DNA from: Eledone cirrhosa
Taxonomy: Eukaryota
DNA: 64,000 nt
Assembly: GCA_964016885.1 (NCBI GenBank)
Contig: CAXHJY010001477.1
Span: 62,001-126,000, forward strand
Reading direction: 5' to 3'
In this document: piece by piece, positions 3,240 through 50,343 of the stretch
How positions within the stretch are numbered: position 1 is the stretch's first letter
How the letters are laid out: every line of letters begins with the position of its first letter
The notes under the pieces: generated by a model
Database searches by the model: none
Seen by the model: the letters and a program-made list of their open reading frames with translations, nothing else
What the model was told of the DNA's origin: nothing
Made by a program: the position numbers and the translations under genes

Positions 3240-3474
3240 GTGAAAGAAGAGGAAAAAGAGGAGACGAGGGAAGCACCTACTCTTTGTGCTCCTGAGGAGA
3301 AGGGTTGCACATTTTTTCCGGGGTGTGTGCGACCCATGTTAATGCCCCCTCCCTATTGAGGACTTCGTTTGTTGTTGTTATTTCATTGTTATATTTTTGT
3401 ACTCGTTAATTATATGTAAACTTCCCCCCTTGTATCTGTCCCTACCTTTTGTGCCCTAGTGGCAAATAAAGAAA
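1..3474 (+). mobile_element. L1/Tx1-clade non-LTR retrotransposon, copy A (5' part lies outside the window)
   Basis: Carries APE and RT ORF2 remnants, a 3'UTR and an AATAAAGAAA terminus (3465-3474). Near-identical to the copies at 4523, 35913 and 41721. Confidence 0.93.
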
Positions 3475-4522: not shown

Positions 4523-4732
4523 CTCGTATACGAGAGACGTGTGTTGACGTGTGTGAACAAGCTCGGCTACCGAGTTGGATTTACTTACTCAAAAGTGAGT
4601 TTTGATTAATTTTTTTATACTGTAATATACATTAACCCCTTGCCTGGGTCGTCAAACTTTGAGTTTATTTATTTTCGCCCCTTTTTGGAGGGAAATTTCT
4701 TTTCAAAAATTTATTACGGCAAACTGATAGAA

Positions 4733-6025
4733 ATGGACGGAATTTTCACATCTCATCCTAACGAGAAAGCTACGCCCCCTAAGAAAGGTGATACAGAGAA
4801 GCTAGAAGCACAAGGCTCTAAGTCTTCCCTCCTCACTTCTGCAAAAGAAACATGGAACACGGAATTAAAAGAAAAATTTGTAAAAATGGGTGAAAACCCA
4901 GAAAGTCACATAAACGCAGACAAAAACAACGCAGACAATAACAGCACGATCAACAACAGCAATAGTCACAACACCAACCAAGGAAAAAATAACGATAACA
5001 CCAAACAAAGCGAACCCACTACTGGTGCCTCCTTCGCACAGGCGGTCCGAAAAACACAGACCTGCAAGCAACTGGACATTACAACTCTGAGAGAAAAGAT
5101 GAAGGAAGCAAAACAGTATGTAACATTCAAAGAAGGAGGAGACTTCATAATCACCTCCCCACAAGAAATCAAAAGAGACACGACACTAAGAACGATATCT
5201 TTCAGAACAATTTCCAACATAACAAGGAAACCAGCTCAATTATCCCCAAAAGAAATTGAGCTGGTCCTAAAAATGTGTGGAGTGATATATCGTTCATACA
5301 AAAAGGGCCACTCTATGGGAATATAACGGTGCTAATGAAGGATCAATTGACGGCCAGGAAATACTGTGTGTCGCCAATTGTTTCCAAGCTACACACATTT
5401 TTCCCCACATATTTGGGGAAAAGAACGCAGAAAATAAGAGTCTCCGGAATCCGGCCAAATGCATGCATTTCCCTGGTACTAACAGGATTTTTAGAAGACG
5501 AGGACGGAATCCTCTCAGTAGGAGAAGTCACCACAGACGTTTCGGCGGTTTGAGCGTGGAGGTTCTGGTCCAAATGAGACCAGAACGAATAGCTAGAATA
5601 CCACAGAGGGTGTCCCTCGATGGAGAAACATTTATATACATTTCAGCCAAGGGTAGGAGGCCCATATGTTACTACTGTTCAAGCAGGGGTCATCTAAGGG
5701 CTGCCTGTCCTCAATTGACAAAAAAAAGGCTCTTTTGCCTACCCCCCACACACCACCACCGCAATTATTTGCAAGCGCGGCCAACAAACCGCATTTAAAA
5801 ATGATAAGACTCCCAATGGACACCTATGCAAAACTAAGAGAGAACTTTCCTGAGGACGTGGGGGAAACATGTTCCCAACCCTATAACCGCGTCCTCTTGA
5901 AACGTTTCCCCACCCACACATCACCAAACACCCCCACCCCACCACAGAACAACACCCCATCAAACAACCCCTCCAATACGCCCATGGATATTGTGCAACC
6001 TGCTCCTCAGGAGCCGAACAGGTAG
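4733..6025 (+). pseudogene. Tx1 copy B ORF1 (gag-like, CX2CX4HX4C zinc knuckle), frameshifted
   Basis: Starts MDGIFTSH, contains CYYCSSRGHLRAAC and ends APQEPNR*. Split across ORFs 4640, 5275, 5463 and 5666. Confidence 0.88.
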
Positions 6026-6046
6026 GTCCTTCCTCTTTTAACCAAC

Positions 6047-8825: not shown

Positions 8826-9060
8826 GTGAAAGAAGAAGAAAAAGAGGAGACGAGGGAAGCACCTACTCTCTGTGCTCCCGAGGAGAAGGGTTGCACATTT
8901 TTTCCGGGGTGTGTGCGCCCCATGTTAATGCCCCCTCCCTATTGAGGACTTCGTTTGTTGTTGTTATTTCATTGTTATATTTTTGTACTCGTTAATTATA
9001 TGTAAACTTCCTCCCTTGTATCTGTCCCTACCTTTTGTGCCCTGTTGGCAAATAAAGAAA

Positions 9061-9922
9061 TTACTCTATATATACTATTGTACTGTCATAGTAAAGGGTT
9101 TACCTCACATAACATTCAAATTACTCTATATATACTATTGTATTTTCACAGTAAAGGCTTTACCTCACATAATATCTCACATAACATTTACATTACTCTA
9201 TATATACTATTGTATTTTCACTGTAAAGGCTTTACCTCACATAATATCTCACATAACATTTACATTACTCTATATATACTATTGTATTTTCACAATAAAG
9301 GCTTTACCTCACATAATATCTCATATAGCATTTACATTACTCTATATATACTATTGTATTTTCACTGTCAAGGCTTTACCTCACATACTATCTCACATAA
9401 CATTTACATTACTCTATATATACTATTGTATTTTCACTGTCAAGGCTTTACCTCACATAATATCTCACATAACATTTACATTACTCTATATATACTATTG
9501 TATTTTCACAGTAAAGGCTTTACCTCACATAATATCTCACATAGCATTTATATTACTCTATATATACTATCGTATTTTCACAGTAAAGGCTTTACCTCAC
9601 ATAATATCTCACATAACATTTACATTACTCTATATATACTATTGTATTTTCACTGTCAAGGCTTTACCTCACATAATATCTCACATAACATTTATATTAC
9701 TCTATATATACTATTGTATTTTCACTGTAAAGGCTTTACCTCACATAACATCTCACATAACATTTACATTATTCTATATATACTATTGTATTTTCACTGT
9801 AAAGTCTTTACCTCACATAATATCTCACATAACATTTACATTACTCTATATATACTATTGTATTTTCACAGTAAAGGCTTTACCTCACATAATATCTCAC
9901 ATAACATTTACATTACTCTATA
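9061..9922. repeat. 72-bp satellite array
   Basis: About 12 units of the same unit as 3475-4522. Interrupted at TTACTCTATA| by an RTE element. Confidence 0.97.
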
Positions 9923-12900
9923 AATGCTTGAACGTAAGGAGGTTGATGTTTGCTGTATCCAAGAGACCAGGTGGAGGGGCGGGTCTGCTAGATTCATTGT
10001 GGGTAAAAAACGTTGCTATAAGCTTTTCTGGGTGGGGAATGACAATGGGATAGGTGGGGTAGGAATCATGTTAGCAGAAAAATGGGTGGATAAGATAATA
10101 GATGTAAATAGTGTGAATGACAGATTATTAAAATAAGACTTGTCCTCAATAGAACTACTGTGACAATAATATCTGCATATGCGCCCCAATCCGGACTGCC
10201 TGGCACTATAAAAGACAGATTCTATGAGACACTGATGCTCAGTACCTCCCAAATAACCGACAGTGACTATATAATTATTGCTGGTGACCTAAATGGTCAC
10301 GTTGGACAACATTGTGACGGCTATGACGGAATCCACGGAGGCTATGGGTTTGGTACTAGAAATGAGGAAGGCTCCAGAATCCTGGAATTCTGTGATGCAA
10401 ATAATCTAACTATCTGTAACACTAACTTCAAAAAACGAGACAATCACTTGATCACCTACAGATCAGGAGAACATACCAGCCAGGTAGATTATATCCTTAC
10501 CAGAAGACGTGACAAAGTGTCTGTTGTAAACACTAAATCCCTCCCCCATGAAGAATGCACCTCCCAACATAGACTGATAATTAGCGACCTCATAGTCAGG
10601 ACGAGACGTACTAGACAGCAGAAGAGGATTATCCTCAGGAGAAAAATATGGAAGCTAAAGGATCCCACAGCCAGAAATAAATTTCAAGTCATATTACTTG
10701 ATGCTTTCGACAGTAAGGAAGAGCAATTAGAGTCGTACAATATAGAGGAACAGTGGGAATTCCTGAAAGCAAACCTGCTGATGGTGGCAGACGAAGTCTG
10801 TGACTGGAGCAGGCCTGTAGGCAGGAGGAGAGTAACGTGGTGGTGGAACAGTAAGGTGGAGGGGTCAATCAAGGCCAAAAAGCAGGCTTGGAAAGCATGG
10901 CGGGATGGGGGAAGTAGAGAAGACTATCAAGTGGCCAGGAGGGAAGCTAGGAGACAAGTGTACTTCGCAAGAAGGGAAGCAGAGGAAAGAAAGTTCAAAC
11001 ATGTTCTACAACGCGAGGACCAAAAACGTGAGGTGTTCAGGATTGCTAGGCAATGTGTCAAGGAAAACCGTGATATTGTCGGGGAGAAGTGTGTACTTAA
11101 CGATGATGGCGTACTTGCCATCACTGACGCTGATAAGAAGGTAGCTTGGAAATGTCACTACGAAAGGCTACTAAATGAGGAGAATAAATGGGAGAAAGAC
11201 AGTCTCGCCACATCGACCCAATAGAGGGACCAGCAGTGTTAGTCGAAGGTAGTATAATAAGTAAGGCAATCAAAGATATGAAGACGGGTAAGGCGGCTGG
11301 GCCTTCGGAAATAGTTGCTGAGATGCTGAAAGCCTCCGGTACGGTGGGGCACACCATGGTCACCCGGATAGTAAACCAAGTCATACAGAATGGGGTTGTT
11401 CCGAAGCAGCATCATCGTTAACTGTTACAAGGGTAAAGGAGATGCCCTAGATAGGAGTAACTATAGAGGCATTAAATTAATCGACCAGGTCATGAAGGTC
11501 ACGGAAAAAGTAATAGCGGAACTAATCAGAGAGAGAATTGATCTAGATGAAATGCAGTTCGGGTTTGTGTCAGGCAAAAGTACCACAGACGCTCTTTTCA
11601 TTGTACGACAACTACAGGAGAAGGACCTAGCTAAAAGTAAACCCCTATACTTAGCTTTTGTCGACTTGGAGAAAGCCTTCGACAGAGTCCCCCGTTCCAT
11701 TATCTGGTGGGCTCTTAGAAAACTAGGTGTTGACGAATGGCTTGTGAGAGCCATACAAGCCATGTATAAAGAAACAGTCAGCAAGGTTAGAATTAACAAC
11801 GAATATAGTGAAGAGTTTAGCGTAAAAGTTGGTGTCCATCAGGGCTCTGTTCTTAGCCCCCTACTATTTATTATTGCCCTTCAGGCTATAACAGAGGAGT
11901 TCAAGACCGGCTGCCCATGGGAACTCCTATATGCAGATGATCTAACGCTCATAGCTGAATCAATGGCCGAGCTAGAGAAGAAATTCCAAACATGGAAGCA
12001 CGGCCTAGAATCAAAAGGCCTTAAAATTAACCTGGCTAAGACTAAAGTTCTAGTTTGTAGGAAAGAAAATAAGGCGCCGGTCCCCTCCAGGAAATGGCCA
12101 TGCTCAGTGTGTAGGAAAGGCGTAGGTAGAAACTCCATTTTATGTCCCAAATGCAAAGTATGGGTGCATAAAAGATGTAGTGGGATCACAGGTAAGCTAA
12201 CTAAGAACACAGATTTTACATGTGGCCGGTGCTCTGGTGCAATAAGTAGCAGCAAGTGCTCACAAAATACTAACTCTTTCAATTGCGCAGAGGGTTCTAT
12301 AGAAATAGTGGACAGCTTCCGTTACCTGGGTGACAAAATCAGCAGTGGAGGAGGGTGCTCTGAAAGTACAGTAGCTAGAGTCAGAACTGGATGGAAAAAG
12401 TTCAGAGAGCTTATACCACTATTAGCCGCTAAAGGGTTCTCCCTAAAAATGAAAGGCAGGTTGTATGATACCTGCATACGAACAGCAATGTTGCATGGCA
12501 GTGAGACCTAGGCATTGTGTGCAGAGGATATACGCAGACTAGAGAGGAACGAAGCTTGCATGCTCTGCTGGATGTGTAATAGTAATATACGTGAACGGCA
12601 AAGCATAAATGAACTAAGGAAAAAATTAGAAATAAGAGGGATCAGATGTTGTTTACTCGAGAGAAGGCTACGTTGGTATGGTCACATGATGCGCATGAAA
12701 GACGACAGCTGTATAAAAAAGTGCAGGGCAATAAAGATAGATGGTAGCCACGGAGTAGGCAGACCCAGGAAAACCTGGGACGAGCTGATAAATTCCGACC
12801 TCACACACTTACACCTCTCCAAGACAATGTCACTGGACCGAGACCTTTGGCGGTACTCAGTAACAGAGAAGACCCGCCTTACCTAAATACAAAGTAAAAC

Positions 12901-13265
12901 CTACTAGTCAGTAGGCATCTCTAACAAAATACACCCCCGTCCCACCCCATCCACACCGCCCCCTTCAATGCAAAGTTATGTTGGTGCCACAACATCCAGG
13001 CCGAAACAAATGAGATCGTGTAGGTGTCACGACAAAAAACACACAGTCCACGCTGTAATGTGGCCGTGTAGGCAACACGGTAAAAACCTCCCAGTCTCAC
13101 TCTGTAAATGTGGTTGGTGTTAGGAAGGGCATCCAACTGTAGAAAACCTGCCAGACAGTCCTATGCGAGCAAGACAACCACTCTTGCCTCAAGTGGGAAA
13201 ACCCCCGTCCAAACCCATGCAAGCATGGAACAGGGACGTTAAACAATGATGATGATGATGATGAT
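9923..13265 (+). mobile_element. RTE-clade LINE, slightly 5'-truncated, inserted in the 72-bp satellite
   Basis: APE (VCCIQETRW, SAYAPQ, AGDLNGHVG, SQVDYIL, SQH), RT (YRGIKL, DLEKAFD, HQGSVLSP, YADD), RTE-type C-terminus (RRLRWYGH, GRPRKTW) and a GGACGTTAAAC(A/G)ATGATGAT tail. Confidence 0.93.
9924..12886 (+). pseudogene. RTE ORF (APE-RT with inserted PHD-type finger), disrupted
   Basis: Pieces at 9924, 10160, 11188, 11390 and 12515. PHD-like segment CSVC..CPKC..H..C..CGRC near 12100-12235. TAG stop at 12509-12511. Confidence 0.9.
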
Positions 13266-13385
13266 ACTATTGTATTTTCACAGTAAAGGCTTTACCTCAC
13301 ATAATATCTCACATAACATTTACATTACTCTATATATACTATTGTATTTTCACAGAAAAGTCATTATCTCACATAATTATCTCAC
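13264..13385. repeat. 72-bp satellite, last ~1.7 units after the RTE
   Basis: Resumes at ATACTATTGTATTTTCAC in the phase at which the RTE interrupted it, then decays into unique sequence. Confidence 0.93.
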
Positions 13386-13533
13386 TTAATATCGAATCTA
13401 TGAGATTTTGATATTATTTATTTTGAGAACAACACCTTAACATCAGTATGAGCAGTCAGTTATAGTTGGTTTGAACAGAAAAAGGTGAGTGAATTCTAGC
13501 TGGATATGGCCAGTTTAAATGCTAAAGGGTTAA
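13386..13533. mobile_element. Right arm and terminus of a piggyBac-type non-autonomous element (TAAATGCTAAAGGG|TTAA)
   Basis: The reverse complement of 13516-13529 is CCCTTTAGCATTTA, a 13/14 match to 33215-33228 (CCCTTTAACATTTA). Both are flanked by TTAA. Confidence 0.78.
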
Positions 13534-32922: not shown

Positions 32923-33210
32923 TAATAGCCATTAGGAATGATATCTAGCCGTAGAAACGAATCCAAATATTTACCATATATGTGGCATGGTCCCCCAATA
33001 TGTCGAAGAAACAGTTTCAATTAAGTCTATAACATGTCACATTAATTACACCATGACAATCACACACACACACAATGACACTGACAATCACACAGACACA
33101 GTGAGTGAGGGAACAAAGCACAAATGTGTGTTATTGTATTTAAATGTGATTGTTAATGAAAGCTGCTATAAAATGAAATATAGTAGAGTATGTACTGACT
33201 GGCTTATAGG

Positions 33211-33228
33211 TTAACCCTTTAACATTTA
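33211..33228. mobile_element. Left terminus of the piggyBac-type element (TTAA|CCCTTTAACATTTA) that opens the 72-bp array
   Basis: TTAA followed by CCC. Inverted match to 13516-13529. Runs directly into the satellite (AACATTTACATTACTCT). Confidence 0.78.
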
Positions 33229-35912
33229 CATTACTCTATATATACTATTGTATTTTCACAGTAAAGGCTTTACCTCACATAACATTTACATTACTCTATA
33301 TATACTATTGTATTTTCACAGTAAAGGCTTTACCTCACATAATATCTCACGTAACATTTACATTACTCTATATATACTATTGTATTTTCACAGTAAAGGC
33401 TTTACCTCACATAACATTTACATTACTCTATATTTACTATTGTATTGTCACAGTAAAGGCTTTACCTCACATAATATCTCACATAACATTTACATTACTC
33501 TATATATACTATTGTATTTCCACAGTAAAGGCTTTACCTCACATAGTACCTCACATAACATTTACATTACTCTATATATAGTATTGTATTTTCACAGTAA
33601 AGTCTTTACCTCACATAATATCTCACATAACATTTACATTACTCTATATATACTATTGTATTTTCACAGTAAAGGCTTTACCTCACATAATATCTCACAT
33701 AACATTTACATTACTCTATATATACTATTGTGTTTTCACAGTAAAGTCTTTACCTCACATAATATCTCACGTAACATTTACATTACTCTATATTTACTAT
33801 TGTATTGTCACAGTAAAGGCTTTACCTCACATAATATCTCACATAACATTTACATTACTCTATATATACTATTGTATTTCCACAGTAAAGGCTTTACCTC
33901 ACATAGTACCTCACATAACATTTACATTACTCTATATATAGTATTGTATTTTCACAGTAAAGTCTTTACCTCACATAATATCTCACATAACATTTACATT
34001 ACTCTATATATACTATTGTATTTTCACAGTAAAGGCTTTACCTCACATAATATCTCACATAACATTTACATTACTCTATATATACTATTGTATTTTCACA
34101 GTAAAGTCTTTACCTCACATAATATCTCACGTAACATTTACATTACTCTATATTTACTCTTGTATTGTCACAGTAAAGGCTTTACCTCACATAATATCTC
34201 ACATAACATTTACATTACTCTATATATACTATTGTATTTTCACAGTAAAGGCTTTACCTCACATAGTACCTCACATAACATTTACATTACTCTAAATATA
34301 CTATTGTATTTTCACAGTAAAGGCTTTACCTCACATAATATCTCACATAACATTTACATTACTCTTTATATACTATTGTATTTTCACAGTAAAGGCTTTA
34401 CCTCACATAATATCTCACATAACATTTACATTACTCTATATATACTATTGTATTTTCACAGTAAAGTCTTTACCTCACATAATATCTCACATAACATTTA
34501 CATTACTCTATATATACTATTGTATTTTCACAGTAAAGGTTTTACCTCACATAATATCTCACGTAACATTTACATTACTCTATATTTACTATTGTATTGT
34601 CACAGTAAAGGCTTTACCTCACATAATATCTCACATAACATTTACATTACTCTATATATACTATTGTATTTTCACAGTAAAGGCTTTACCTCACATAGTA
34701 CCTCACATAACATTTACATTACTCTAAATATACTATTGTATTTTCACAGTAAAGGCTTTACCTCACATAATATCTCACATAACATTTACATTACTCTATA
34801 TATACTATTGTATTTTCACAGTAAAGGCTTTACCTCACGTAACATTTACATTACTCTATATATACTATTGTATTTTCACAGTAATGGCTTTACCTCAATA
34901 ATATCTCACATAACATTTACATTACTCTATATATACTATTGTATTTCCACAGTAAAGGCTTTACCTCACATAATATCTCACATAACATTTACATTACTCT
35001 ATATGTACTATTGTATTTTCACAGTAAAGGCTTTACCTCACATAATATCTCACATAACATTTACATTACTCTATATATACTATTGTATTTTCACAGTAAA
35101 GGCATTACCTCACATAATATCTCACATAACATTTACATTACTCTATATATACTATTGTATTGTCACAGTAAAGGCTTTACCTCACATAACATTTACATTA
35201 CTCTTTATATACTATTGTATTTTCACAGTAAAGGCTTTACCTCACATAATATCTCACATAACATTTACATTACTCTTTATATACTATTGTATTTTCACAG
35301 TAAAGGCTTTACCTCACATAATATCTCACATAACATTTACATTACTCTATATATACTATTGTATTTTCACAGTAAAGTCTTTACCTCACATAATATCTCA
35401 CGTAACATTTACATTACTCTATATATACTATTGTATTTTCACAGTAAAGGTTTTACCTCACATAATATCTCACATAACATTTACATTACTCTATATATAC
35501 TATTGTATTTTCACAGTAAAGTCTTTACCTCACATAATATCTCACATAACATTTACATTACTCTATATATACTATTGTATTTTCACAGTAAAGGTTTTAC
35601 CTCACATAATATCTCACATAACATTTACATTACTCTATATTTACTATTGTATTTTCACAGTAGAGGCTTTACCTCACATAATATCTCACATAACATTTAC
35701 ATTACTCTATATATACTATTGTATTTTCACAGTAAAGGTTTTACCTCACATAATATCTCACATAACATTTACATTACTCTATATATACTATTGTATTGTC
35801 ACAGTAAAGGCTTTACCTCACATAATATCTCACATAACATTTACATTACTCTATATATACTATTGTATTTTCACAGTAAAGGCTTTACCTCACATAATAT
35901 CTCACATAACAT
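33221..35912. repeat. 72-bp satellite array, ~38 units, with a 360-bp higher-order repeat
   Basis: Same unit. The marker ACATAGTACC recurs at 33541, 33901, 34261 and 34693. Confidence 0.97.
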
Positions 35913-36121
35913 CTCGTATACGAGAGACGTGTGTTGACGTGTGTGAACAAGCTCGGCTACCGAGTTGGATTTACTTACTCAAAAGTGAGTTTTGATTAAT
36001 TTTTTATACTGTAATATACGTTAACCCCTTGCCTTGGTCGTCAAACTTTGAGTTTATTTATTTTATCCCCTTTTTGGGGCGAATTTTACACTTAAAAATT
36101 TATTACGGCAAACTAATAGAA

Positions 36122-37668
36122 ATGGACGGAATTTTCACATCTCATCCTAATGAGAAAGCCACGCCCCCTAAGAAAGGTGATACAGAGAAGCTAGAAGCAC
36201 AAGGCTCTAAGTCTTCCCTCCTCACTTCTGCAAAAGAAACATGGAACACGGAATTAAAAGAAAAATTTGTAAAAATGGGTGAAAACCCAGAAAGTCACAT
36301 AAACGCAGACAAAAACAACAACGACAATAACAGCAATAGTCACAACACCAACCAAGGAAAAAATAACGATAACACCAAACAAAGCGAACCCACTACTGGT
36401 GCCTCCTTTGCACAGGCGGTCCGGAAAACACAAACCTGCAAGCAACTGGACATTACAACTCTGAGAGAAAAGATGAAGGAAGCGAAACAGTATGTAACTT
36501 TCAAAGAAGGAGGAGACTTCACAATCACCTCCCCACAAGAAATCAAAAGAGACACGACGCTAAGAACGATATCTTTCAGAACAATTTCCAACATAACAAG
36601 GAAACCAACTCAATTATCCCAAAAAGAGATTGAGCTGGTCCTAAAAAATGTGTGGGTACTAACAGGATTTTTAGAAGACGAGGACGGAATCCTCTCAGTA
36701 GGAGAAGTCACCACAGACGTTTTCGGCGGTTTGAGCGTGGAGGTTCTGGTCCAAATAAGACCAGAACGAATAGCTAGAATACCACAGAGGGTGTCCCTCG
36801 ATGGAGAAACATTTATATATATTTCAGCCGAGGGTAGGAGGCCCATATGTTACTACTGTTCAAGCAGGGGTCATCTAAGGGCTGCTTGTCCTCAATTGAC
36901 AAAAAAAAGGCTCTTTTGCCTACACCCCACACACCACCACCGCCACCACCACCACCACCACGACCTCCACCACCACCACCACAACAACAACAAAAACAAC
37001 AGGGAAAAATAACACAAGACACGGCCCCACCCAAAACAACTCCAAAAACACACACAAATACAACAAAACCCCAAAATACACCACTACCCGACAGCACGGA
37101 CAAGGACCCAGCGGAAACGGCACCTAGTGACGAAGAGGGGGAACCCTTCCAACCTGTAAAAAGGAAAAAAAGAAAGCACCACTCGAACATAAACGAAACA
37201 AACACACAACCACCAACAAAAACAAAACAAACAGAACAAACAAAATCCGCCCCACCCCAAAACATAACACATACAACAAAACGTAAGCACACACAAGAAC
37301 AACAAACAAACACAACACAAATAAAACAGTATACATACATTAACACAAATAACAAAGAACTAGTAAAAACAATACACAAAGACCCTTTGGTGGAAACTGA
37401 AGGGCAATTCTTTGCAAGCGCGGCCAACAAACCGCATTTAAAAATGATAAGACTCCCAATGGACACCTATGCAAAACTAAGAGAGAACTTTCCTGAGGAC
37501 GTGGGGAAAACATGTACTCGACCCTATAACCGCGTCCTCTTGAAACGTTTCCCCACCCACACCTCACCAAACACCCCCACTCCACCACAGAACAACACCC
37601 CACCAAACAACCCCTCCAATACGCCCATGGATATTGTGCAACCTGCTCCTCAGGAGCCGAACAGGTAG
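36122..37668 (+). pseudogene. Tx1 copy C ORF1 (zinc knuckle plus Pro/Thr/Lys-rich tail)
   Basis: MDGIFTSH start and CYYCSSRGHLRAAC. The frame changes at the A8 run (36901-36908). Contains a KRKKRK basic patch and stops 21 nt before the ORF2 ATG. Confidence 0.88.
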
Positions 37669-37689
37669 GTCCTTCCTCTTTTAACCAAC

Positions 37690-40600
37690 ATGGCTGATAT
37701 AAGAGTTGGGTGTCTGAATGTACGTGGCCTGGGACTGTCTTGGAAACAAGGCAAACTTTTAAACGATCTCAGGTCGCATAGAATGGATGTAATGGCTATT
37801 TGCGAGTCCAGGATCAGCAGCGAGCACCAACTGGCGCCCCTCTTCGACGACTTTGAGATCTTCGCATCTCTCTGTCAACCGGGGGGTGGGGGTGGAGTTG
37901 TCGTTCTGCTGCGAAAACACCTGGGCCTCGCCATACAGAAGGTGCACCTGGACCCGGAGGGTCGACTGGTGGTTTTAGACGTCGGCAGTAGTGAAAGTGG
38001 AGCCCTTAGACTAATAGCTGTGTACGCCCCTTTTGGGGCAGCGCGGCCGGAATACTTCCAACGTCTGGAAACTTTTCTGGGAACGTCCCGCTCCTTGCTT
38101 TTAGTGGGGGACTGGAATGGTATCCTGGATGCACGTTGGGACTATGTAGGGGCATGTGCCAATAGAGGGGGGGGGTGTAAAAGCCTCAAAAGGTTAATCG
38201 GCCGATTTGACCTGGCCGATAGATATCGACTAGATTTTCCGACTGTACCACTATGGACGTGGACCAATCGCAGTGGAACATCTAGGTCGTACCTAGATAG
38301 GGTCCTAGTTAGAGAGAACGATAGGGACACATTTAGCTGTCCAAAAATGTTCATGGTTGACTATTCGGATCACAAGTTAGTGACCTGCATAGCCAACCTT
38401 GATAGAACCCATAGACAGGGACCCGGTTACTGGAAGCTGAACTTGTCCTTACCGAGAAGCAAAGCTTACAGTAAACGGATTAGCACGTTAGTTAAGCAGA
38501 GTTTGACAGGGGCAATTGTCAACAACAGGTGGTGGAGCTCTCTTAAGAGAGCAATTAGAATAGAATCGATAGGTTTTAGTCAGGAATTAGCAAGGGATAG
38601 GAACAAGACGGAAAGGGAATTAGTAGATAGAGTAGAAGAGGCGATTAGGAGTGGCAATGTAGCCGGCGTGCTGGCATCAAGAATGGCCTTAGACCAGTTC
38701 TTTGAGGTGAAGCATGAAGGCTGCGTTGTCAGGAGTAAAATACGTGCTCTGGGTAATGAGGGAGCCAAAGCTGTGAGCTGGGCCCGAGTGACAGAGGCAA
38801 AAAGTGTGAACAAGTCCACGATTCGGTCTTTGAAGGACCAGGATGGGCGTGTGATCCTTGAACCTGGGCAGATGTGTGCGGCCTTTCAGCGGCACTTTGC
38901 ACGACTGTTCGAGAGGGGCGGCGCGCTGGGTGAGACTATGGATTTCAATCCATACCTCGACGGTCTGCCGCGCCTCTCGGACGCGGAGGCGAAGTCCTGC
39001 GAAAGGACGATTTCAGCTGCTGAGATAGGGGCGGCGCTGAGCCAATGCGGCAAACGCAAATCCCCGGGTCTCGATGGTCTACCATACGAGCTATATGTAG
39101 CGATGCCGGACTTGTTCTCCGATATCCTCGAAGCGGTCTACTGCAACTGGCAGCAGAACGGGAGAATTCCCAGTTCTGTGACCAAGGGCGTAGTTACGCT
39201 GGTGAGGAAGGATGAGAACAAGGGGGATGACATAAGTAACTTCAGGCCCATAACTCTGCTAAATACAGAGTTAAAGATTTTGGCCAAGGTGTTAGCGAAG
39301 AGGTTGGCGCTTGTCGTTGGAAACCTGGTGGGAGAAGCGCAGACATGCGCAATCCCGTCCAGGTCCATTCACGACAATCTCCACCTTATGCGATACATCA
39401 TAGAGAGGGTAGGGAATGAACCCGGCTTTGGTGGGGCCCTGATCAACTTGGATCAATCTAAAGCTTTCGATAGGGTTGACCATCGTTACCTGGATGCGGT
39501 GCTCGCGGCGGCAGGCTTCGGACCCGTTTTCAGGGGTTGGATTGCTGCGATGCACAGCAGCAACGTCTGCTCAAGGGTCAAGGTGAACGGCCACCTCTCG
39601 GAGCCGTTCCAAATCATGCGATCCATCCGACAGGGATGCCCTCTCTCCTCCCTACTGTATGTGCTGGCTCTTGAGCCACTACTTCGGAAGTTGGAGCGGT
39701 TGCAGGGCATCCCTTTGGAACCGGGATTGCAGAAAGCGGCGTCGGCCTACGCCGATGACGTGACAGTAATGGTGTCGAAAACCTCGCAAATCGGTGAGAT
39801 CGGCACCTTACTGGAGGAATATTAAAGGTTTACAGGAGCCAAACTGAACCGGGACAAGTCCGTCGGTTTGCAACTCGGAACATGGAGAGGCAAACCGATG
39901 CCCTCCAACGACGTCGTCGGACGCTGGACGGACGGCCCGGTGAAGCTGCTTGGGGTCTGGTTCGGACCAGACCTCCAGGTGGAGAAAAACTGGAACGAGG
40001 TAACGGCCAGGGTGTTTGCACTCACCCAGAAGTGGGCCCAGTGCAAACTATCCCTGAAAGGTCGAGCGGAGGTGGCGAATACTTATATAGCATCCGTCAT
40101 CTACTACCGCTTGACCGTCGTGCCTTGCCCAGTGAAAAGACTCGCCAAAATGGAGTGCGCGCTGTTCCAATTTCTTTGGAACAAGCGGACCCCTTTGGTG
40201 AGGAGATCCATCTGCTGTCAACACCCTTCGAAAGGAGGGCTGGGGATGCCGTGGCTACAGATGCGTAAACACGCATTAAGGCTACGGCACCTCCAGGTAT
40301 TCCTCACCGGTCAACCGGTGTGGGCCCCGTTTGTGAGGCGAGCCTTTCCCAGACTCGTCTCGCTCACCGAGCTGCAATCCTGGGTCAAGCAAAGACCGAG
40401 AAAAGTGGGCGACTGGCACATTGAATGTGCCCAGGCGCTCACGGCCCTCTGGAAAGCGGACCCGGCAATCAGTGGAGACTCCACCTCGACATTCTATAGA
40501 GGGTTGGTACGCAGCAGGTGCGACGATGCTCTCGGAGAAGCTCTAGGCATGGAGGAAGATGAACTGGCCAGTCTGTTCGGTAGGACGTTTGGCCCTGGAC

Positions 40601-41130
40601 CGATGGACAACTTCCAAAAGTCCCTGGCTTGGCAGTGCTACCGAGGGGCTCTACCCGTTCGAGACAAGCTCCACAGGCATGGGAGCCTGGGTAGAGATCT
40701 TTTGAATAAGATCTGTCCGAGATGCGTGCATGATGACGAAACCGTTGCGCACGCATTCGTACACTGCCCAGGCATTGCTGACCTGTGGGGCTATGTGGAA
40801 CGACTACTGTCGAGGGTGGGACCAATCCGGTTGACCACCGAGTCCATTGTCACGATCAAACCGCCTCCCCCTTTCAAAAACGAAGGAGAGGCGGTTTTTC
40901 TCTGTGTGGTAGCCATGGCTAAAGAAGTTGTATGGTGGACGAGGCTGAAAGGGCTGAGGTCAGACACCTTTCTCTCCGGCCAACAACTGGTCCCCGTTTT
41001 CAAATACCATTTTAAAAGAAGGATCAGAATGGAGAGAGAGGTGCTCTACCCCAGCAAGTTTTATGAAAGGTGGGGGAAAGTAGGGAGAATGGCCAGAGTG
41101 AATGGGTCTTCTCTCTATATCAGCCTGTAG
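37690..41130 (+). pseudogene. Tx1 copy C ORF2, 1146 codons, single in-frame stop at 39823-39825
   Basis: Complete APE (CLNVRG, ICE, VYAP, GDWN, SYLD, SDH), RT (YADD) and C-terminal CCHC. It has TAA where the other copies have GAA. Confidence 0.95.
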
Positions 41131-41365
41131 GTGAAAGAAGAGGAAAAAGAGGAGACGAGGGAAGCACCTACTCTTTGTGCTCCTGAGGAGAAGGGTTACA
41201 CATTTTTTCCGGGGTGTGTGCGACCCATGTTAATGCCCCCTCCCTATTGAGGACTTCGTTTGTTGTTGTTATTTCATTGTTATATTTTTGTACTCGTTAA
41301 TTATATGTAAACTTCCCCCCTTGTATCTGTCCCTACCTTTTGTGCCCTAGTGGCAAATAAAGAAA

Positions 41366-41720
41366 CCACTCTATATATACTATTGTATTTTCACAGTAAT
41401 GTCTTTACCTCACATAATATCTCACATAACATTTACATTACTCTATATATACTATTGTATTTTCACAGTAAAGGCTTTACCTCACATAATATCTCACATA
41501 ACATTTACATTACTCTATATATACTATTGTATTTTCACAGTAAAGTCTTTACCTCACATAAAATCTCACATAGCATTTACATTACTCTATATATACTATT
41601 GTATTTTCACAGTAAAGGCTTTACCTCACATAATATCTCACATAACATTTACATTACTCTATATATACTATTGTATTTTCACAGTAGAGGCTTTACCTCA
41701 CATAATATCTCACATAACAT
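41366..41720. repeat. 72-bp satellite spacer between copies C and D
   Basis: 355 bp, which is 5 x 72 minus 5. Confidence 0.97.
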
Positions 41721-41929
41721 CTCGTATACGAGAGACGTGTGTTGACGTGTGTGAACAAGCTCGGCTACCGAGTTGGATTTACTTACTCAAAAGTGAGTTT
41801 TGATTAATTTTTTATACTGTAATATACGTTAACCCCTTGCCTTGGTCGTCAAACTTTGAGTTTATTTATTTTATCCCCTTTTTGGGGCGAATTTTACACT
41901 TAAAAATTTATTACGGCAAACTAATAGAA

Positions 41930-43655
41930 ATGGACGGAATTTTCACATCTCATCCTAATGAGAAAGCCACGCCCCCTAAGAAAGGTGATACGGAGAAGCT
42001 AGAAGCACAAGGCTCTAAGTCTTCCCTCCTCACTTCTGCAAAAGAAACATGGAACACGGAATTAAAAGAAAAATTTGTAAAAATGGGTGAAAACCCAGAA
42101 AGTCACATAAACGCAGACAAAAACAACAACGACAATAACAGCAATAGTCACAACACCAACCAAGGAAAAAATAACGATAACACCAAACAAAGCGAACCCA
42201 CTACTGGTACCTCCTTTGCACAGGCTGTCCGGAAAACACAGACCTGCAAGCAACTGGACATTACAACTCTAAGAGAAAAGATGAAGGAAGCAAAACAGTA
42301 TGTAACTATCAAAGAAGGAGGAGACTTCACAATCACCTCCCCACAAGAAATCAAAAGAGACACGACACTAACAACGATATCTTTCAGAACAATTTCCAAC
42401 AAAACAAGGAAAACAGCTCAATTATCCCCAAAAGAAAATGAGCTGGTCCTAAAAAATGTGTGGAGTGATATATCGTTCATACAAAAAGGGCCACTCTATG
42501 GGAATATAACGGTGCTAATGAAGGATCAATTGACGGCCAGGAAATACTATGAGGTGCCAATTGTTTCAAAGCTACACACATTTTTCCCCACATATTTAGG
42601 GAAAAGAACGCAGAAAATAAGAGTCTCCGGAATCCGGCCAAATGCATGCATTTCCTGGGTACTAACAGGATTTTTAGAAGACGAGGACGGAATCCTCTCA
42701 GTAGGAGAAGTCACCACAGACGTTTTCGGCGGTTTGAGCTTGGAGGTTCTGGTCCAAATGAGACCAGAACGAATAGCTAGAATACCACAGAGGGTGTCCC
42801 TCGATGGAGAAACATTTATATACATTTCAGCCAAGGGTAGGAGGCCCATATGTTACTACTGTTCAAGCAGGGGTCATCTAAGGGCTGCCTGTCCTCAATT
42901 GACAAAAAAAGGCTCTTTTGCCTACACCCCACACACCACCACCGCCACCACCTCCACCACCACCACCACCACAACAACAAAAACAACACGGAAAAACAAC
43001 ACAAGACACGGCCCTACCCAAAACAACTCCCAAAACACACACAAACACAACAAAACCCCAAAATACACCACTACCCGACAGCACGGACGAGGACCCAGCT
43101 GAAACGGCACCTATTGACGAAGAGGGGGGACCCTTCCAACCTGTAAAAAGGAAAAAAAGAAAGCACCACTCGAACATAAACGAAACAAACACACAACCAC
43201 CAACAAAAACAAAACAAACAGAACAAACAAAATCCGCCCCACCCCAAAACATAACACATACAACAAAACGTAAGCACACACAAGAACAACAAACAAACAC
43301 AACACAAATAAAACAGTATACATACATTAACACAAATAACAAAGAACTAGTAAAAACAATACACAAAGACCCTTCGGTGGAAACTGAAGGGCAATTCTTT
43401 GCAAGCACGGCCAACAAACCGCATTTAAAAATGATAAGACTCCCAATGGACACCTATGCAAAACTAAGAGTGAACTTTCCTGAGGACGTGGGGAAAACAT
43501 GTACTCGACCCTATAACCGCGTCCTCTTGAAACGTTTCCCCACCCACACCTCACCAGACACCACCACTACACCACAGAACAACACCCCACCAAACAACCC
43601 CTCCAATACGCCCATGGATATTGTGCAACATGCTCCTCAGGAGCCGAACAGGTAG
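41930..43655 (+). pseudogene. Tx1 copy D ORF1
   Basis: Full N-terminal region and zinc knuckle. The frame breaks at the A7 run near 42904-42910. Confidence 0.88.
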
Positions 43656-43676
43656 GTCCTTCCTCTTTTAACCAAC

Positions 43677-46600
43677 ATGGCTGATATAAGAGTTGGGTGT
43701 CTGAATGTACGTGGCCTGGGACTGTCTTGGAAACAAGGCAAACTTTTAAACGATCTCAGGTCGCATAGAATGGATGTAATGGCTATTTGCGAGTCCAGGA
43801 TCAGCAGCGAGCACCAACTGGCGCCCCTCTTCGACGACTTTGAGATCTTCGCATCTCTCTGTCAACCGGGGGGTGGGGGTGGAGTTGTCGTTCTGCTGCG
43901 AAAACACCTGGTCCTCGCCATACAGAAGGTGCACCTGGATTCGGAGGGTCGACTGGTGGTTTTAGACGTCGGCAGTAGTGAAAGTGGAGCCCTTAGACTA
44001 ATTGCTGTGTACGCCCCTTTTTGGGCAGCGCGGCCGGAATACTTCCAACGTCTGGAAACTTTTCTGGGAACATCCCGCTCCTTGCTTTTAGTGGGGGACT
44101 GGAATGGTATCCTGGATGCACGTTGGGACTATGTAGGGGCATGTGCCAATAGAGGGGGGGGGGGGTGTAAAAGCCTCAAAAGGTTAATCGGCCGATTTGA
44201 CCTGGCCGATAGATATCGACTAGATTTTCCGACTGTACCACTATGGACGTGGACCAATCGCAGTGGAACATCTAGGTCGTACCTAGATAGGGTCCTAGTT
44301 AGAGAGAAGGATAGGGACACATTTAGCTGTCCAAAAATGTTCATGGTTGACTATTCGGATTACAAGTTAGTGACCTGCATAGCCAACCTTGATAGAACCC
44401 ATACCCCGGTTACTGGAAGCTGAACTTGTCCTTACCGAGAAGCAAAGCTTACAGTAAACGGATTAGCACGTTAGTTAAGCAGAGTTTGACAGGGGCAATT
44501 GTCAACAACAGGTGGTGGAGCTCTCTTAAGAGAGCAATTAGAATAGAATCGATAGGTTTTAGTCAGGAATTAGCAAGGGATAGGAACAAGACGGAAAGGG
44601 AATTAGTAGATAGAGTAGAAGAGGCGATTAGGAGTGGAAATGTAGCCGGCGTGCTGGCATCAAGAATGGCCTTAGACCAGTTCTTTGAGGTGAAGCATGA
44701 AGGCTGCGTTGTCAGGAGTAAAATACGTGCTCTGGGTAATGAGGGAGCCAAAGCTGTGAGCTGGGCCCGAGTGACAGAGGCAAAAAGTGTGAACAAGTCC
44801 ACGATTCGGTCTTTGAAGGACCGGGATGGGTGTGTGATCCTTGAACCTGGGCAGATGTGTGCGACCTTTCAGCGGCATTTTGCACGACTGTTCGAGAGGG
44901 GCGGTGCGCCGGGTGAGACTATGGATTTCAATCCATACCTCGACGGTCTGCCGCGCATCTCGGACGCGGAGTCCTGCGAAAGGCCGATTTCAGCTGCTGA
45001 GATAGGGGCGGCGCTGAGCCAATGCGGCAAACGCAAATCCCCGGGTCTCGATGGTCTACCATACGAGCTATATGTAGCGATGCCGGACTTGTTCTCCGAT
45101 ATCCTCGAAGCGGTCTACTGCAACTGGCAGCAGAACGGGAGAATTCCCAGTTCTGTGACCAAGGGCGTAGTTACGCTGGTGAGGAAGGATGAGAACAAGG
45201 GGGATGACATAAGTAACTTCAGGCCCATAACTCTGCTAAATACAGAGTTAAAGATTTTGGCCAAGGTGTTAGCGAAGAGGTTGGCGCTTGTCGTTGGAAA
45301 CCTGGTGGGAGAAGCGCAGACATGCGCAATCCCGTCCAGGTCCATTCACGACAATCTCCACCTTATGCGATACATCATAGAGAGGGTAGGGAATGAACCC
45401 GGCTTTGGTGGGGCCCTGATCAACTTGGATCAATCTAAAGCTTTCGATAGGGTTGACCATCGTTACCTGGATGCGGTGCTCGCGGCGGCAGGCTTCGGAC
45501 CCGTTTTCAGGGGTTGGATTGCTGCGATGCACAGCAGCAACGTCTGCTCAAGGGTCAAGGTGAACGGCCACCTCTCGGAGCCGTTACAAATCATGCGATC
45601 CATCCGACAGGAATGCCCTCTCTCCTCCCTTCTGTATGTGCTGGATCTTGAGCCACTACTGCGGAAGTTGGAGAGGTTGCAGGGCATCTTTGGAACCGGG
45701 ATTGCAGAAAGCGGCGTCGGCCTACGCCGATAACGTGACAGTAATGGTGTCGAAAACCTCGCAAATCGGTGAAATCGGCACCTTACTGGAGGAATATGAA
45801 AGGTTTACAGGAGCCTAGCTGAACCGTGACAAGTCCATCGGTTTGCAACTCGGAACATGGAGAGGCAAACCGATGCCCTCCAATGACGTCGTCGGACGCT
45901 GGACGGAGGGCCCGGTGAAGCTGCTTGGGGTCTGGTTCGGACCAGACCTCCAGGTGGAGAAAAACTGGAACGAGGTAACGGCCAGGGTGTTTGCACTCAC
46001 CCAGAGGTGGGCCCAGTGGAAACTATCCCTGAAAGGTCGAGCGGAGGTGGCGAATACTTATATAGCATCCGTCATCTACTACCGCTTGACCGTCGTGCCT
46101 TGCCCAGTGAAAAGACTCGCCAAAATGCAGTGCGCGCTGTTCCAATTTCTTTGGAACAAGCGGACCCCTTTGGTGAGGAGATCCATCTGCTGTCAACACC
46201 CTTCGAAAGGAGGGCTGGGGATGCCGTGGCTACAGATGCGTAAACACGCATTAAGGCTACGGCACCTCCAGGTATTCCTCACCGGTCAACCGGTGTGGGC
46301 CCCGTTTGTGAGGCGAGCCTTTCCCAGACTCGTCTCGCTCACCGAGCTGCAATCCTGGGTCAAGCAAAGACCGAGAAAAGTGGGCGACTGGCACATTGAA
46401 TGTGCCCAGGCGCTCACGGCCCTCTGGAAAGCGGACCCGGCAATCAGTGGAGACTCCACCTCGACATTCTATAGAGGGTTGGTACGCAGCAGGTGCGACG
46501 ATGCTCTCGGAGAAGCTCTAAGCATGGAGGAAGATGAACTGGCCAGTCTGTTCGGTAGGACGTTTGGCCCTGGACCGATGGACAACTTCCAAAAGTCCCT

Positions 46601-47105
46601 GGCTTGGCAGTGCTACCGAGGGGCTCTACCCGTTCGACATAAGCTCCACAGGCATATGAGCTTGGGTAGGGATCCTTTGAATAAGATCTGTCTGAGATGC
46701 GTGCATGACGACGAAACCGTTGCGCACGCATTCGTACACTGCCCAGGCATTGCTGACCTGTGGTGCTATGTGGAACGACTACTGTCGAGGGTGGGACCAA
46801 TCCGGTTGACCACCGAGTCCATTGTCACGATCAAACCGCCTCCCCCTTTCAAAAACGAAGGAGAGGCGGTTTTTCTCTGTGTGATAGCCATGGCTAAAGA
46901 AGTTGTATGGTGGACGAGGCTGAAAGGGCTGAGGTCAGACACCTTTCTCTCCGGCCAACAACTGGTCCCTTTTTTCAAATACCATTTGAAAAGAAGGATC
47001 AGAATGGAGAGAGAGGTGCTCTACCCCAGCAAGTTTTATGAAAGGTGGGTGAAAGTAGGGAGAATGGCCAGAGTGAATGGGTCTTCTCTCTATATCAGCC
47101 TGTAG
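43677..47105 (+). pseudogene. Tx1 copy D ORF2, disrupted
   Basis: Net 7-bp deletion near 44404, 2-bp deletion near 45688, YADN in place of YADD, TAG at 45816-45818. Confidence 0.92.
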
Positions 47106-47340
47106 GTGAAAGAAGAGGGAAAAGAGGAGACGAGGGAAGCACCTACTCTTTGTGCTCCTGAGGAGAAGGGTTGCACATTTTTTCCGGGGTGTGTGCGACC
47201 CATGTTAATGCCCCCTCCCTATTGAGGACTTCGTTTGTTGTTGTTATTTCATTGTTATATTTTTGTACTCGCTAATTATATGTAAACTTCCCCCCTTGTA
47301 TCTGTCCCTACTTTATGTGCCCTAGTGGCAAATAAAGAAA

Positions 47341-47766
47341 TCACTCTATATATACTATTGTATTTTCACAGTAATGTCTTTACCTCACATAATATCTCAC
47401 ATAACATTTACATTACTCTATATATACTATCGTATTTTTACAGTAAAGGCTTTACCTCACATAATATCTCACATAACATTTACATTACTCTATATATACT
47501 ATTGTATTTTTACAGTAAAGGCTTTACCTCACATAATATCTCACATAACATTTACATTACTCTATATATACTATTGTATTTTCACAGTAAAGGCTTTACC
47601 TCACATATCTCACATAACATTTACATTACTCTATATATACTATTGTATTTTCACAGTAAAGGCTTTACATCACAATATCTCACATAACATTTACATTACT
47701 CTATATATACTATTGTATTTTCACAGTAAAGGCTTTACCTCACACAGCATTTACATTACTCTATAT
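47341..47766. repeat. 72-bp satellite array, ~6 units
   Basis: Same unit. Ends at TTACTCTATAT|, where RTE 3' sequence begins. Confidence 0.96.
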
Positions 47767-47950
47767 TACTCCCAGTTCCACACTGTAAACATGGTTAGTG
47801 TTAGGAAGGGCATCCAGCCATAAAAACCTGCCAGACAGTCCTATAGAAGCGAGACATGGTCACCTGACCAATCTTGCCTCAAGTGGGACAACTCCCGTCT
47901 AACCCATGCTAGCGTGGAAGATGGACGTTAAACGAAGATGATGATGATGA
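47767..47950 (+). mobile_element. Short RTE 3'-end fragment or RTE-tailed SINE
   Basis: CTCCCAG..CACTGTAAA..TGTTAGGAAGGGCATCCAG...GGACGTTAAACGAAGATGATGATGATGA. Confidence 0.88.
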
Positions 47951-50341
47951 CAAATTCAAAAGCTTATTACTTGATACCTTGACAATAAGGAAGAGCAATT
48001 AGAGACGTGCAATATAGAGGAACAGTGGCAATTCTTGAAAGCAAACCTGCTGAAGGCGACAGATGAAGTCTGTGGCTGGAGCAGACCTATTGGCAGGAGG
48101 AGAGTAATGTGGTGGTGGAACAGTAAGGTGGAGGAGACAATCAAGGCCAAAAAGCAGGTTTGGAAAGTATGGCAGGATGGGGTAATTAGAGAGAACTATC
48201 AAGTGGCCAAGAGAGAAGCTAAGAGACAAGTGTACCTTACAAAAAGGGAAGCAGATGATAGAAAGTTCAAGCGTGTTCTACAACGTGAGGACCAAAAACG
48301 TGAGGTGTTCAGGATTGCAAGACAATGTGTCAAGGAAAACCGTGATATTGTCGGGGGGAAGTGTGTCCTTAATGATAACGGTGTACTTGCCCTCACTGAT
48401 ACTGATAAGAAGATATCCTGGAAGTGTCACTATGAGAGACTATTAAATGAGGAGAATAAGTGGGAAAAAGATAGTCTGCCCCAAATCGATCCAATAGAAG
48501 GACAAGCAGTGCAAGTTAAAGGTAGTATAATAAGTAAGGTAATCAAAGATATGAAGACAGGCAAGGCAGCTGGGCCTTCGGAGATAGTTGCTGAGATGTT
48601 GAAGGCATCTGGAATGGTGGGACACACTATGGTCATCCGTATAGTTAACCAGGTAATAGAGAATGGGGTCATACCGAAAGACTGGCGTAGCAGCATCATC
48701 ATTAACTGCTACAAGGGTAAATGGGATGCTCTTGATAGGGGAAACTATAGAGGCATTAAGTTAGTTGACCAGGTCATGAAGGTCACAGAAAAAGTAATAG
48801 CGCAACTAATCAGAGAGCGAATTGATCTAGATGAAATGCAGTTTGGTTTGTGTCAGGTAAAAGTACCACAGATACTCTTTTCCTTGTACGACAACTACAG
48901 GAGAAAGTACCTAGCTAAAAGTAAAGTCCTATACTTAGCTTTTGTTGACTTGGAGAAAGCCTTTGACAGAGTCCTCCGCTCCATTATCTGGTGGGTTCTT
49001 AGAAAACTAGGTGTAGATGAATGGCTTGTGAGAGCCATACAAGCCATGTATAAAGAAACAGTCAGCAAGGTTAGAATTAACAACGAATATAGTGAAAAAT
49101 TTAGCATAAAAGTTGGTGTCCATCAGGGCTCTGTCCTTAGCCCCCTCCTAGTTATTATTGCCCTTCAAGCTATAACAGAGGAGTTCAAGACCAGCTGCCC
49201 ATGAGAACTTCTCTATGCAGATGATCTAACACTCATAGCTGAATCAATGGCTGAACTAGAGAAGAAATTCCAAACATGGAAGCATGGCCTAGAATCAAAT
49301 GGCCTTAAAGTTAACTTGCGCCCACAGGATACTAGCTCCATCTATTGCCAAGATGGCTCTATAGAAATAGTGGACATCTTCCGTTACCTGGGTGACAAAA
49401 TCAGCAGTGGTGGAGGGTGCTCAGAAAGTACAGTAGCTAGAGTCAGAACGGGATTGAAAAAGTTCAGAGAGCTTATACCACTATTGGCCGCTAAATGTTT
49501 CTCTCTAAAAATGAAAGGCAGGCTGTATGATGCCTGCATACGAACAGCAATGTTGCATGGCAGTGAGACCTGGGCATTGTGTGCAGAGGATATACGCAGA
49601 CTGGAGAGAAACGAAGCTTGCATGCTCCGCTGGATGTGTAATAGTAATATATGTGAACGGCAAAGTATAAACGAACTAAGGGAAAAATTAGAAATAAGAG
49701 GGATCAGATGTTGTTTACTCGAGAGAAGACTACGTTGGTATGGTCACGTGATGCGCATGAAAGACGACAGCTGTATAAAAAAGTGCAGGGCGATCAATAT
49801 AGATGGAAGTTACGGAGTAGGTAGACCCAGAAAAACTTGGGGCGATTTGATAAATTCTGACCTTACACACTTACACCTCTCCAAGACAATGTCACTGGAC
49901 CGAGACCTTTGGCGCTACGCAGTAATACAGAAGACCCGCCTTGCCTATGTACAAAGTGAAACCTACAGTCAGTAGGCACCTCTTAATCAAAAATACACCT
50001 CCCTCCCACTACCCTAACTCCCCCACCCCCATCAACACCATCCCTTTCTCTGTAAAGTTATGTTGGTACCACAACATCCAGTCCTAAATAAATGAGGTCG
50101 TGTAGGTGTCATGACAAAAACAACACACAGTCCAAGCTGTAATGTGACCGTGTAGGCAACACGGTAAAAACCTCCCAGACCCACACTGTAAATGTGGTTG
50201 GTGTTAGGAAGGGCATCCAACTGTAGAAAACCCGCCAGACAGTCCTATGCGAGCAAGACAACCACTCTTGCCTCAAGTAGGAAAATTCCCGTCCAAACCC
50301 ATGCAAGCGTGGAATGTGGACGTTAAACGATGATGATGATG

Positions 50342-50343
<2 letters not shown>
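47951..50343 (+). mobile_element. RTE-clade LINE, 5'-truncated, PHD segment deleted
   Basis: Homologous to about 10678-13265. ORF pieces at 48035-49204 and 49247-49975. The (GAT)n tail abuts (TA)n. Confidence 0.93.

Follow-up and report, generated by a model that had tools for sequence, protein, structure and literature searches.

How did four copies of one retrotransposon come to lie in the same phase and the same orientation of a single satellite, itself derived from the end of a DNA transposon? The question is raised by a 64,000-nucleotide stretch of Eledone cirrhosa DNA (positions 62,001 to 126,000 of contig CAXHJY010001477.1, hereafter the window), in which a long interspersed nuclear element (LINE) of the L1/Tx1 group occupies a 72-bp tandem array belonging to an apparent piggyBac-type element. 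A preliminary description of this DNA had proposed a target-specific LINE parasitising the satellite of a mobile element, in the manner of Xenopus Tx1L/Tx1D. Based on the sequence and on public sequencing runs, we favour, with modest confidence, a target-specific Tx1-type LINE whose filled units (array units carrying a LINE) would have spread further at the DNA level. The four copies likely represent fewer than four insertions, since filled units were likely copied and exchanged as DNA.

Host element, array and insertion site

The satellite forms two blocks in the window. The left end of the host element (TTAA followed by CCCTTTAACATTTA, 33211-33228) opens block 2 and the right end (TAAATGCTAAAGGG followed by TTAA, 13516-13533) closes block 1, and these two terminal repeats, which thus come from different blocks, form an inverted match of 13/14 bases. 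When the terminal pattern was searched with up to two mismatches, exactly these two ends were recovered in the 64 kb, and none of 100 shuffles gave two matches. TTAA flanks and CCC/GGG ends are features of piggyBac-type elements (PMC4625184), and here TTAA flanks, CCC...GGG termini and short terminal inverted repeats are all found, the two ends lying on different blocks; by its termini, the host fits a non-autonomous piggyBac-type element. A Kolobok-type host of the T2-MITE kind (MITE, miniature inverted-repeat transposable element) was considered and rejected, since the ends here are CCC/GGG, against the TTAA with RR (AGGRR) termini given in PMC6004289.

Block 1 runs from copy A of the LINE, which the window edge cuts, through array, copy B, array, an RTE-type LINE, two units and a unique arm to the right end, its left end being beyond the window. 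Block 2 runs from the left end through 38 units, copy C, five units, copy D and six units into pieces of RTE sequence. No right terminal repeat or arm of block 2 was found after these pieces (which begin at ~47767) in the remaining 16 kb of the window, so that the suggestion of a mobilisable composite of more than 13 kb is unsupported for this block. Self-BLAST found no unique flank common to both blocks in the window, the corresponding flanks being missing or outside it. The terminal-repeat and satellite patterns had no match in public metagenome contigs and none, for either pattern, in genome contigs; in viral contigs, the satellite pattern was absent and the terminal pattern occurred once, as a chance 20-mer in unrelated coding-like DNA.

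Each array unit begins anew at base 6 of the terminal repeat on the left and repeats bases 6-14 of it, and because of this every unit contains TAACAT-TTACA-TTACTC. The 72-bp unit is, in other words, the reiterated left end of the piggyBac-type element and not a generic internal repeat. Divergence from the reference unit is 3.1-3.7% in the arrays of block 1, which are the older ones, versus 1.9-2.3% in those of block 2; in array a4 (Table 1), blocks of units are duplicated at a higher order. Filled sites number four among about 80 units (76 counted across five arrays).

All four LINE copies (A-D) lie in this array in one phase and one orientation. Their 5' junctions are identical at the three visible starts (4523, 35913 and 41721), none of which is truncated, and their 3' junctions are in one phase at all four ends (3474, 9060, 41365 and 47340). 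The LINE sits after TAACAT and before TTACTC, the five target bases TTACA being missing at filled sites; the joints of empty sites in public reads agree with this loss. No short target-site duplication was found at the filled sites, where a duplication of 55-67 bp would look alike inside the tandem array. The two letters that follow the LINE are CC, TT, CC and TC in copies A, B, C and D, the empty target having TT. All four copies are broken, and self-BLAST with the arrays masked found no copy outside the arrays in the window.

The positions that the preliminary description gave for these ends and junctions are exact throughout, and so is its 13/14 inverted match. The junction sequences and self-BLAST bear out its four copies in one phase and orientation, with none elsewhere in the window, and the restart of the unit within the terminal repeat supports its derivation of the satellite from a TTAA/CCC-ended piggyBac-type element. 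To this picture, the present analysis adds the RTE in block 1, the RTE pieces that end block 2, the loss of TTACA and the broken state of all the LINEs.

An RNA hairpin can be drawn across the 5' junction (35883-35945), in which the last 24 bases of the array pair with the first 33 of the LINE in three helices (z -3.65; none of 200 shuffles as low). In the controls, the real phase came between rank 1 and rank 7 among 144 in six settings, random flanks did as well in 6-11% of 1500 cases (1-6% without CA-rich arrays), and the same gain was seen in 15% of 1000 element shuffles; the hairpin is suggestive, as a weak post hoc lead. A ribozyme at the LINE 5' end was also considered and rejected, the sole match being a sub-threshold one to glmS (E 0.11).

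Kinship, abundance and classification of the LINE copies

Pairwise divergence is 1.04% between A and C, 1.73% between C and D, 1.76% between A and D and 2.8-3.4% between B and the rest, the copies differing by 36-153 substitutions and by private deletions. Most two-state variable sites (111/120) are private to one copy. The remainder are informative: A and D have in common a 7-bp frameshifting deletion and three linked changes, A and C have five changes in common further right, and the A+D and A+C changes do not intermix anywhere along the LINE (P 0.016; 0.036 if the indel is dropped; one A+B site was left out of the count). Copy A is a mosaic of D and C. Additionally, C and D have in common two variants of the array unit that directly follows the LINE, about 35 bp beyond the 3' junction, as well as two 5' variants that go against the read majority. 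The sharing among A, C and D is DNA-level duplication or conversion, and the common deletion, the mosaic copy and the common flank and 5' variants together mean that the copies do not trace to four separate insertion events. Copies A and B differ in their private changes (14 and 54, respectively), though both stand in older arrays, and B retains the unmodified TT junction. This junction, the divergence of B and the presence of a young A in an older array would fit separate arrivals, or later conversion.

Out of 18 listed public sequencing runs, 14 contain the stretch or part of it and five contain half its words or more; four runs were compared across 35883-41400, five runs with shares below 0.1 being left out. 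No RNA run was listed as containing the stretch, a result that says nothing about expression. In run X1, the region of the first open reading frame (ORF1) is represented by contigs with 0-2 differences at a depth of 1959-2244, with four diverged contigs listed at 7-19, which suggests ~100-280 near-identical LINE copies (a rough figure, depth being a poor measure of copy number). The X1 reads are open at the premature stop of copy C; this, together with the near-identical contigs at high depth, points to a distinct, recently intact subfamily. Diverged relatives swamp the reverse transcriptase (RT) region in X1 depth. Elsewhere, the summed depth is near-flat from the 5' end almost as far as the 3' end, with 1831 at 36151 and 2297 at 40700 (1831-2297 at five places) in X1, 7.5-12.2 in X5 and 3.4-4.8 in X6, and therefore few copies seem to be 5'-truncated; extra 3' copies also seem few. 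Such a profile is compatible with DNA-level hitchhiking or with precise full-length targeting. As background, most LINE families are largely truncated (PMC3747384).

The array is ~90-240x deeper than the LINE in three runs, so that most array units are empty, and independent runs hold the LINE, the empty site and the junction sequence. Runs X5 and X6, which come from one study and are labelled as two other organisms, contain contigs that pass from the array into the identical LINE 5' start, with seven differences and two gaps each, and one X5 contig continues 24 bases past the LINE 3' end. No 3'-junction loose end was found among the rows listed, including those of X16, a restriction site-associated DNA run. 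A one-base insertion at 35897, typical of the transition from array to arm (13371-13388), has about twice the LINE depth in both X5 and X6, hinting at roughly two host right arms per LINE copy.

Copy C is the most informative for coding capacity. Its ORF1, from 36122, carries a 195-bp deletion and a frameshift, and its ORF2 (37690-41130) is in one frame with a single premature stop at 39823. The latter matches an N-terminal APE endonuclease, an RT and a C-terminal zinc finger (PF03372, PF00078 and the zf-RVT profile PF13966), and the APE catalytic motifs can be read in its sequence. With a profile of 13 relatives, L1 ORF2p was the best solved relative (E ~1e-159), R2 reaching E 1e-55. ORF1 contains a CCHC zinc knuckle (CX2CX4HX4C) that matches PF00098 at E 0.0044, under the curated cut-off, and its Atlas neighbours are CCHC proteins at 0.92. 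By its predicted ORF2 architecture and its ORF1 knuckle, the element is a member of the L1/Tx1 group of APE LINEs, which supports the initial label at the level of the L1/Tx1 group. The sole close named relative among 52 matches is a partial Argonauta hians protein (64%), which points to an octopod as the likely host, and octopus genomes are described as rich in L1-Tx1 and piggyBac families (PMC13282606, PMC8967140).

The RT tree had 80 rows (53/80 metagenome loci, 25/26 proteins and two rows from the window; the others had too little RT). Copy C falls inside a 39-row clade (96/89) that leaves out the one named plant LINE-type row, a long branch, and includes all four loci adjacent to small nuclear RNA (snRNA) or 5S genes (neighbouring U1, U2 or 5S; two of the loci are identical). 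In this tree, built without named Tx1 members, its position suits the Tx1 clade. The 80 metagenome loci are distant (23-41% identity over the best segment) and uninformative on the target of this LINE, and no protein relative was found in viral contigs. The neighbouring U1, U2 and 5S genes lie in metagenome contigs L024 (5010-5150), L025 (4751-4891), L011 (5833-5996 and 6939-7057) and L006 (296-487), the U1 of L024 and L025 being ~25 bases short; the adjoining LINEs are possibly a family targeting snRNA clusters. Four proteins of a sister lineage (P0014, P0017, P0030 and P0109, ~40-43% identity) stand for clusters that have 352-732 members, located on long ENA contigs; another eukaryote would thus harbour a family that is very young and high in copy number.

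Origin and spread of the filled units

The mechanism that we favour, targeting followed by DNA-level spread, would proceed as follows. Slippage would have tandemly amplified a segment starting from base 6 of the left terminal repeat, giving the anatomy that is observed. The APE endonuclease would then nick the bottom strand between TTACA and TTACTC, priming reverse transcription, and the top strand would be joined five bases upstream, with removal of TTACA. An RNA carrying flanking array sequence could anneal to the next target, which would make the 5' junctions uniform and pass on the letters of the 3' junction. Finally, unequal exchange or gene conversion within the arrays would multiply and mix full-length copies, in the pattern seen among A, C and D, with transposition of whole host elements possibly contributing too. 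In favour of this view, a promiscuous family would be expected to leave more extra 3' copies than the few seen, and contigs from runs labelled as other organisms carry the identical 5' junction. By the criterion of Kojima, a target-specific Tx1 family has more than 20% of its flanks of one type; in the window, 4/4 flanks are alike, but they are mutually non-independent.

Several observations weigh against it. No 5'-truncated copy with a junction of its own was found, such copies being the usual proof of independent targeting. Flat depth and identical 5' junctions are exactly what a single insertion spread as DNA predicts, and so is the inherited C at the 3' junction of three of the four copies. 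The summed depth in X1 climbs to 5951 at 40996 and to 8304 at 41236, and therefore short 3' fragments or related subfamilies exist. The private ORF2 changes (36 synonymous, 83 non-synonymous, pN/pS 0.71) give no significant sign of purifying selection (per-copy P 0.14-0.56), and the RT tree contained no named Tx1 sequence. As for X5 and X6, their junction contigs have 30 (5') and 24 (3') array letters, under a 31-letter bridging rule, at depths of 10 and 4.6, and the X6 3' contig breaks off exactly at 41365; these contigs may be cross-contamination.

Many of these points meet in a rival that we hold to be rather unlikely yet well worth weighing, in which a non-specific LINE inserted once by chance, either in the array or, prior to its amplification, in the host element, and was then spread wholly at the DNA level by unequal exchange and host transposition, so that targeting is unneeded. 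The 3/3 identical 5' junctions, the near-flat depth in X1, X5 and X6, the frameshift, mosaic and flank variants in common, the neutral private divergence and the higher-order duplications of array a4 would all follow. Nevertheless, a non-specific subfamily should leave many dispersed 5'-truncated copies, for which the depth at 40700 leaves little room (a soft argument); moreover, the junction dinucleotide of B differs and equals the empty target, A is young within an old array, and the clade is known to target repeats. In the initial claim of target-specific insertion, the fixed phase in the satellite is supported; as to the putative endonuclease targeting, the copies bear the marks of DNA-level copying (frameshift, mosaicism and flank variants) and the family shows little 5' truncation. 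Copies descending from one insertion later duplicated, the situation that the preliminary description had set against its own proposal, are in part what we find.

At the opposite extreme, four independent and precise retrotranspositions into empty units would account for three different junction dinucleotides, for copies 1.0-3.4% apart and for the 111/120 private sites. This view is largely refuted, and we consider it very unlikely: A and D have an inactivating 7-bp deletion with linked changes in common, A switches from D-like to C-like, and C and D have array variants in common ~35 bp past the 3' junction, so that it would require trans-mobilised dead donors, template switching and long 3' read-through. 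Less credible still is an artefact of assembly as the source of the LINE-array pattern. Tandem arrays do crowd this region, and some frameshifts fall in homopolymer runs, but the copies differ by dozens of substitutions or more and by private deletions, and independent runs contain the LINE as well as its empty site and junction sequence. A bolder version of targeting, which we regard as speculative and improbable though better than these two, would have the LINE recognise the piggyBac-type terminal motif itself, with the array serving as a farm of spare targets that spares the true terminus; at least 100 full-length copies would ride composites mobilised by transposase, and an array co-transcript, its last 24 bases pairing with the first 33 of the LINE, would set the uniform 5' junction.

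Other repeats in the window and comparison with known systems

The features of the two blocks are collected in Table 1.

Table 1. Coordinates of the host element, the 72-bp arrays and the LINEs in the window.
Feature	Position	Strand	Remarks
LINE copy A	1..3474	+	5' part outside window; frameshifted; D-like left, C-like right
72-bp array a1	3475..4522	+	15 units, 3.7% from reference unit
LINE copy B	4523..9060	+	both ends complete; lacks 462, 621 and 38 bp internally; the most diverged copy (2.8-3.4%)
72-bp array a2	9061..9922	+	12 units and one partial
RTE-type LINE	9923..13263	+	3.3 kb, inserted at the TATATA of a unit; tail of (GAT)n; matches to APE, RT and PHD
Last two array units	13264..13392	+	grade into unique arm
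Unique right arm of host element	13393..13529	+	closes with 14-bp terminal repeat, 13516-13529
TTAA, right flank of block 1	13530..13533	.	
TTAA, left flank of block 2	33211..33214	.	
Left 14-bp terminal repeat	33215..33228	+	bases 6-14 are the motif recurring in each array unit and contain the LINE site
72-bp array a4	33226..35912	+	38 units, some of them 60 bp; repeats of higher order; 1.9% from reference unit
LINE copy C	35913..41365	+	5' untranslated region begins with a perfect 12-bp palindrome; ends AATAAAGAAA
72-bp array a5	41366..41720	+	5 units; first unit has two variants in common with first unit after copy D
LINE copy D	41721..47340	+	5620 bp, the longest copy; weak match to a CCHC knuckle in ORF1; frameshifts in ORF2, among them the 7-bp deletion common to A
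72-bp array a6	47341..47766	+	6 units; cut off by RTE sequence
RTE 3' fragment and 5'-truncated RTE	47767..50343	+	88-89% identical to block 1 RTE; then (TA)n

The LINE that interrupts block 1 between array and arm is one that we take to be of RTE type, from its general features rather than from a named match. Both RTE-type insertions join the array at about the same phase, in the TATATA stretch (9922 and 47766); their 88-89% identity rules out a single duplicated insertion. The second closes with (GAT)n, a (TA)n run following at 50344, and RTE tails have been linked to the first target bases (PMC6007223). Between the blocks, at 16137-32923, four other tandem arrays (units of 23, ~16, 24 and 48 bp) cover ~15 kb, and no terminal repeat of this host family borders them. 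Further tandem arrays lie at 55181-56264 (61 bp, 18 units), which by sequence impression resembles part of a LINE 3' end that has been amplified, and at 61670-64000 (49 bp), which continues past the window end. A foldback, MITE-like element of 357 bp, ~81% self-complementary, lies at 57152-57508, with a weaker one at 15256-15539. A repeat resembling a short interspersed element (SINE) has four copies that are 80-90% identical (15535-15689, 50445-50633, 54182-54398 and 56625-56844), three of them flanked by AT- or ATT-rich runs.

In Xenopus, Tx1L inserts in the internal tandem repeat of Tx1D and makes a target-site duplication of ~23 bp. Here, the repeat is instead the reiterated left terminus, with the site within bases derived from the terminal repeat, and five target bases are lost. 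Nevertheless, Tx1L in Tx1D of Xenopus laevis (like Tx2L in Tx2D) is the closest system, since there, too, a LINE with an APE endonuclease occupies one fixed site within a non-autonomous piggyBac element (PMC4494074, PMC1950540, PMC6719617); for Tx1L, the specificity was shown in vitro, and here it is a prediction from the sequence. The LINE/array pair likely works in a similar manner, and membership in a target-specific Tx1 family is likewise probable. The parallel drawn initially is thus real, though less singular than it seemed, since Tx1 families have already been described in other repeats: the crocodilian Tx1-Mar (Mariner), Tx1-9_AMi (Harbinger), and Tx1-8_Crp and Tx1-4_AMi (long terminal repeat elements), as well as satellite-targeting families (PMC4494074). 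These resemble the present case as Tx1-clade LINEs that prefer a site in another repeat, with different targets and hosts. In the same study, a similar problem of hitchhiking, that of a partner SINE, was settled by 5'-truncated copies (PMC4494074). In the literature searched, to which Repbase and most subscription journals did not belong, no target-specific Tx1 family of a cephalopod was found.

If targeting is true, the nesting of Tx1 LINEs in other transposons would be known from a probable cephalopod as well as from frogs and crocodilians. The family, being young and having a defined bond as its target, would suit the study of how APE endonucleases gain specificity. The reiterated terminus as a target, together with the near absence of truncated copies, would also allow retrotransposition and hitchhiking to be told apart cleanly in elements carried by satellites. 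Should hitchhiking alone be at work, this would be ordinary satellite turnover carrying a LINE.

Two further systems bear on separate parts of the mechanism. As to the array, the Xstir satellite of Xenopus is a large tandem array from an internal segment of Xmix, a TTAA-duplicating T2-MITE (PMC6004289), and is thus alike in its amplification from such an element. It differs in its AGGRR, Kolobok-type ends, against CCC/GGG here, and the accessible part of that source mentions no LINE for Xstir/Xmix (PMC6004289). As to the junctions, R2 carries upstream target sequence on its RNA, and annealing of the co-transcribed flank has been proposed to explain its uniform 5' junctions (PMC3774820), in the way we suggest for the array sequence; R2 differs in having a restriction-like endonuclease, a ribosomal DNA target and a ribozyme like that of hepatitis delta virus, against an APE endonuclease, a terminal-repeat-derived target and no matching Rfam ribozyme in the present LINE.

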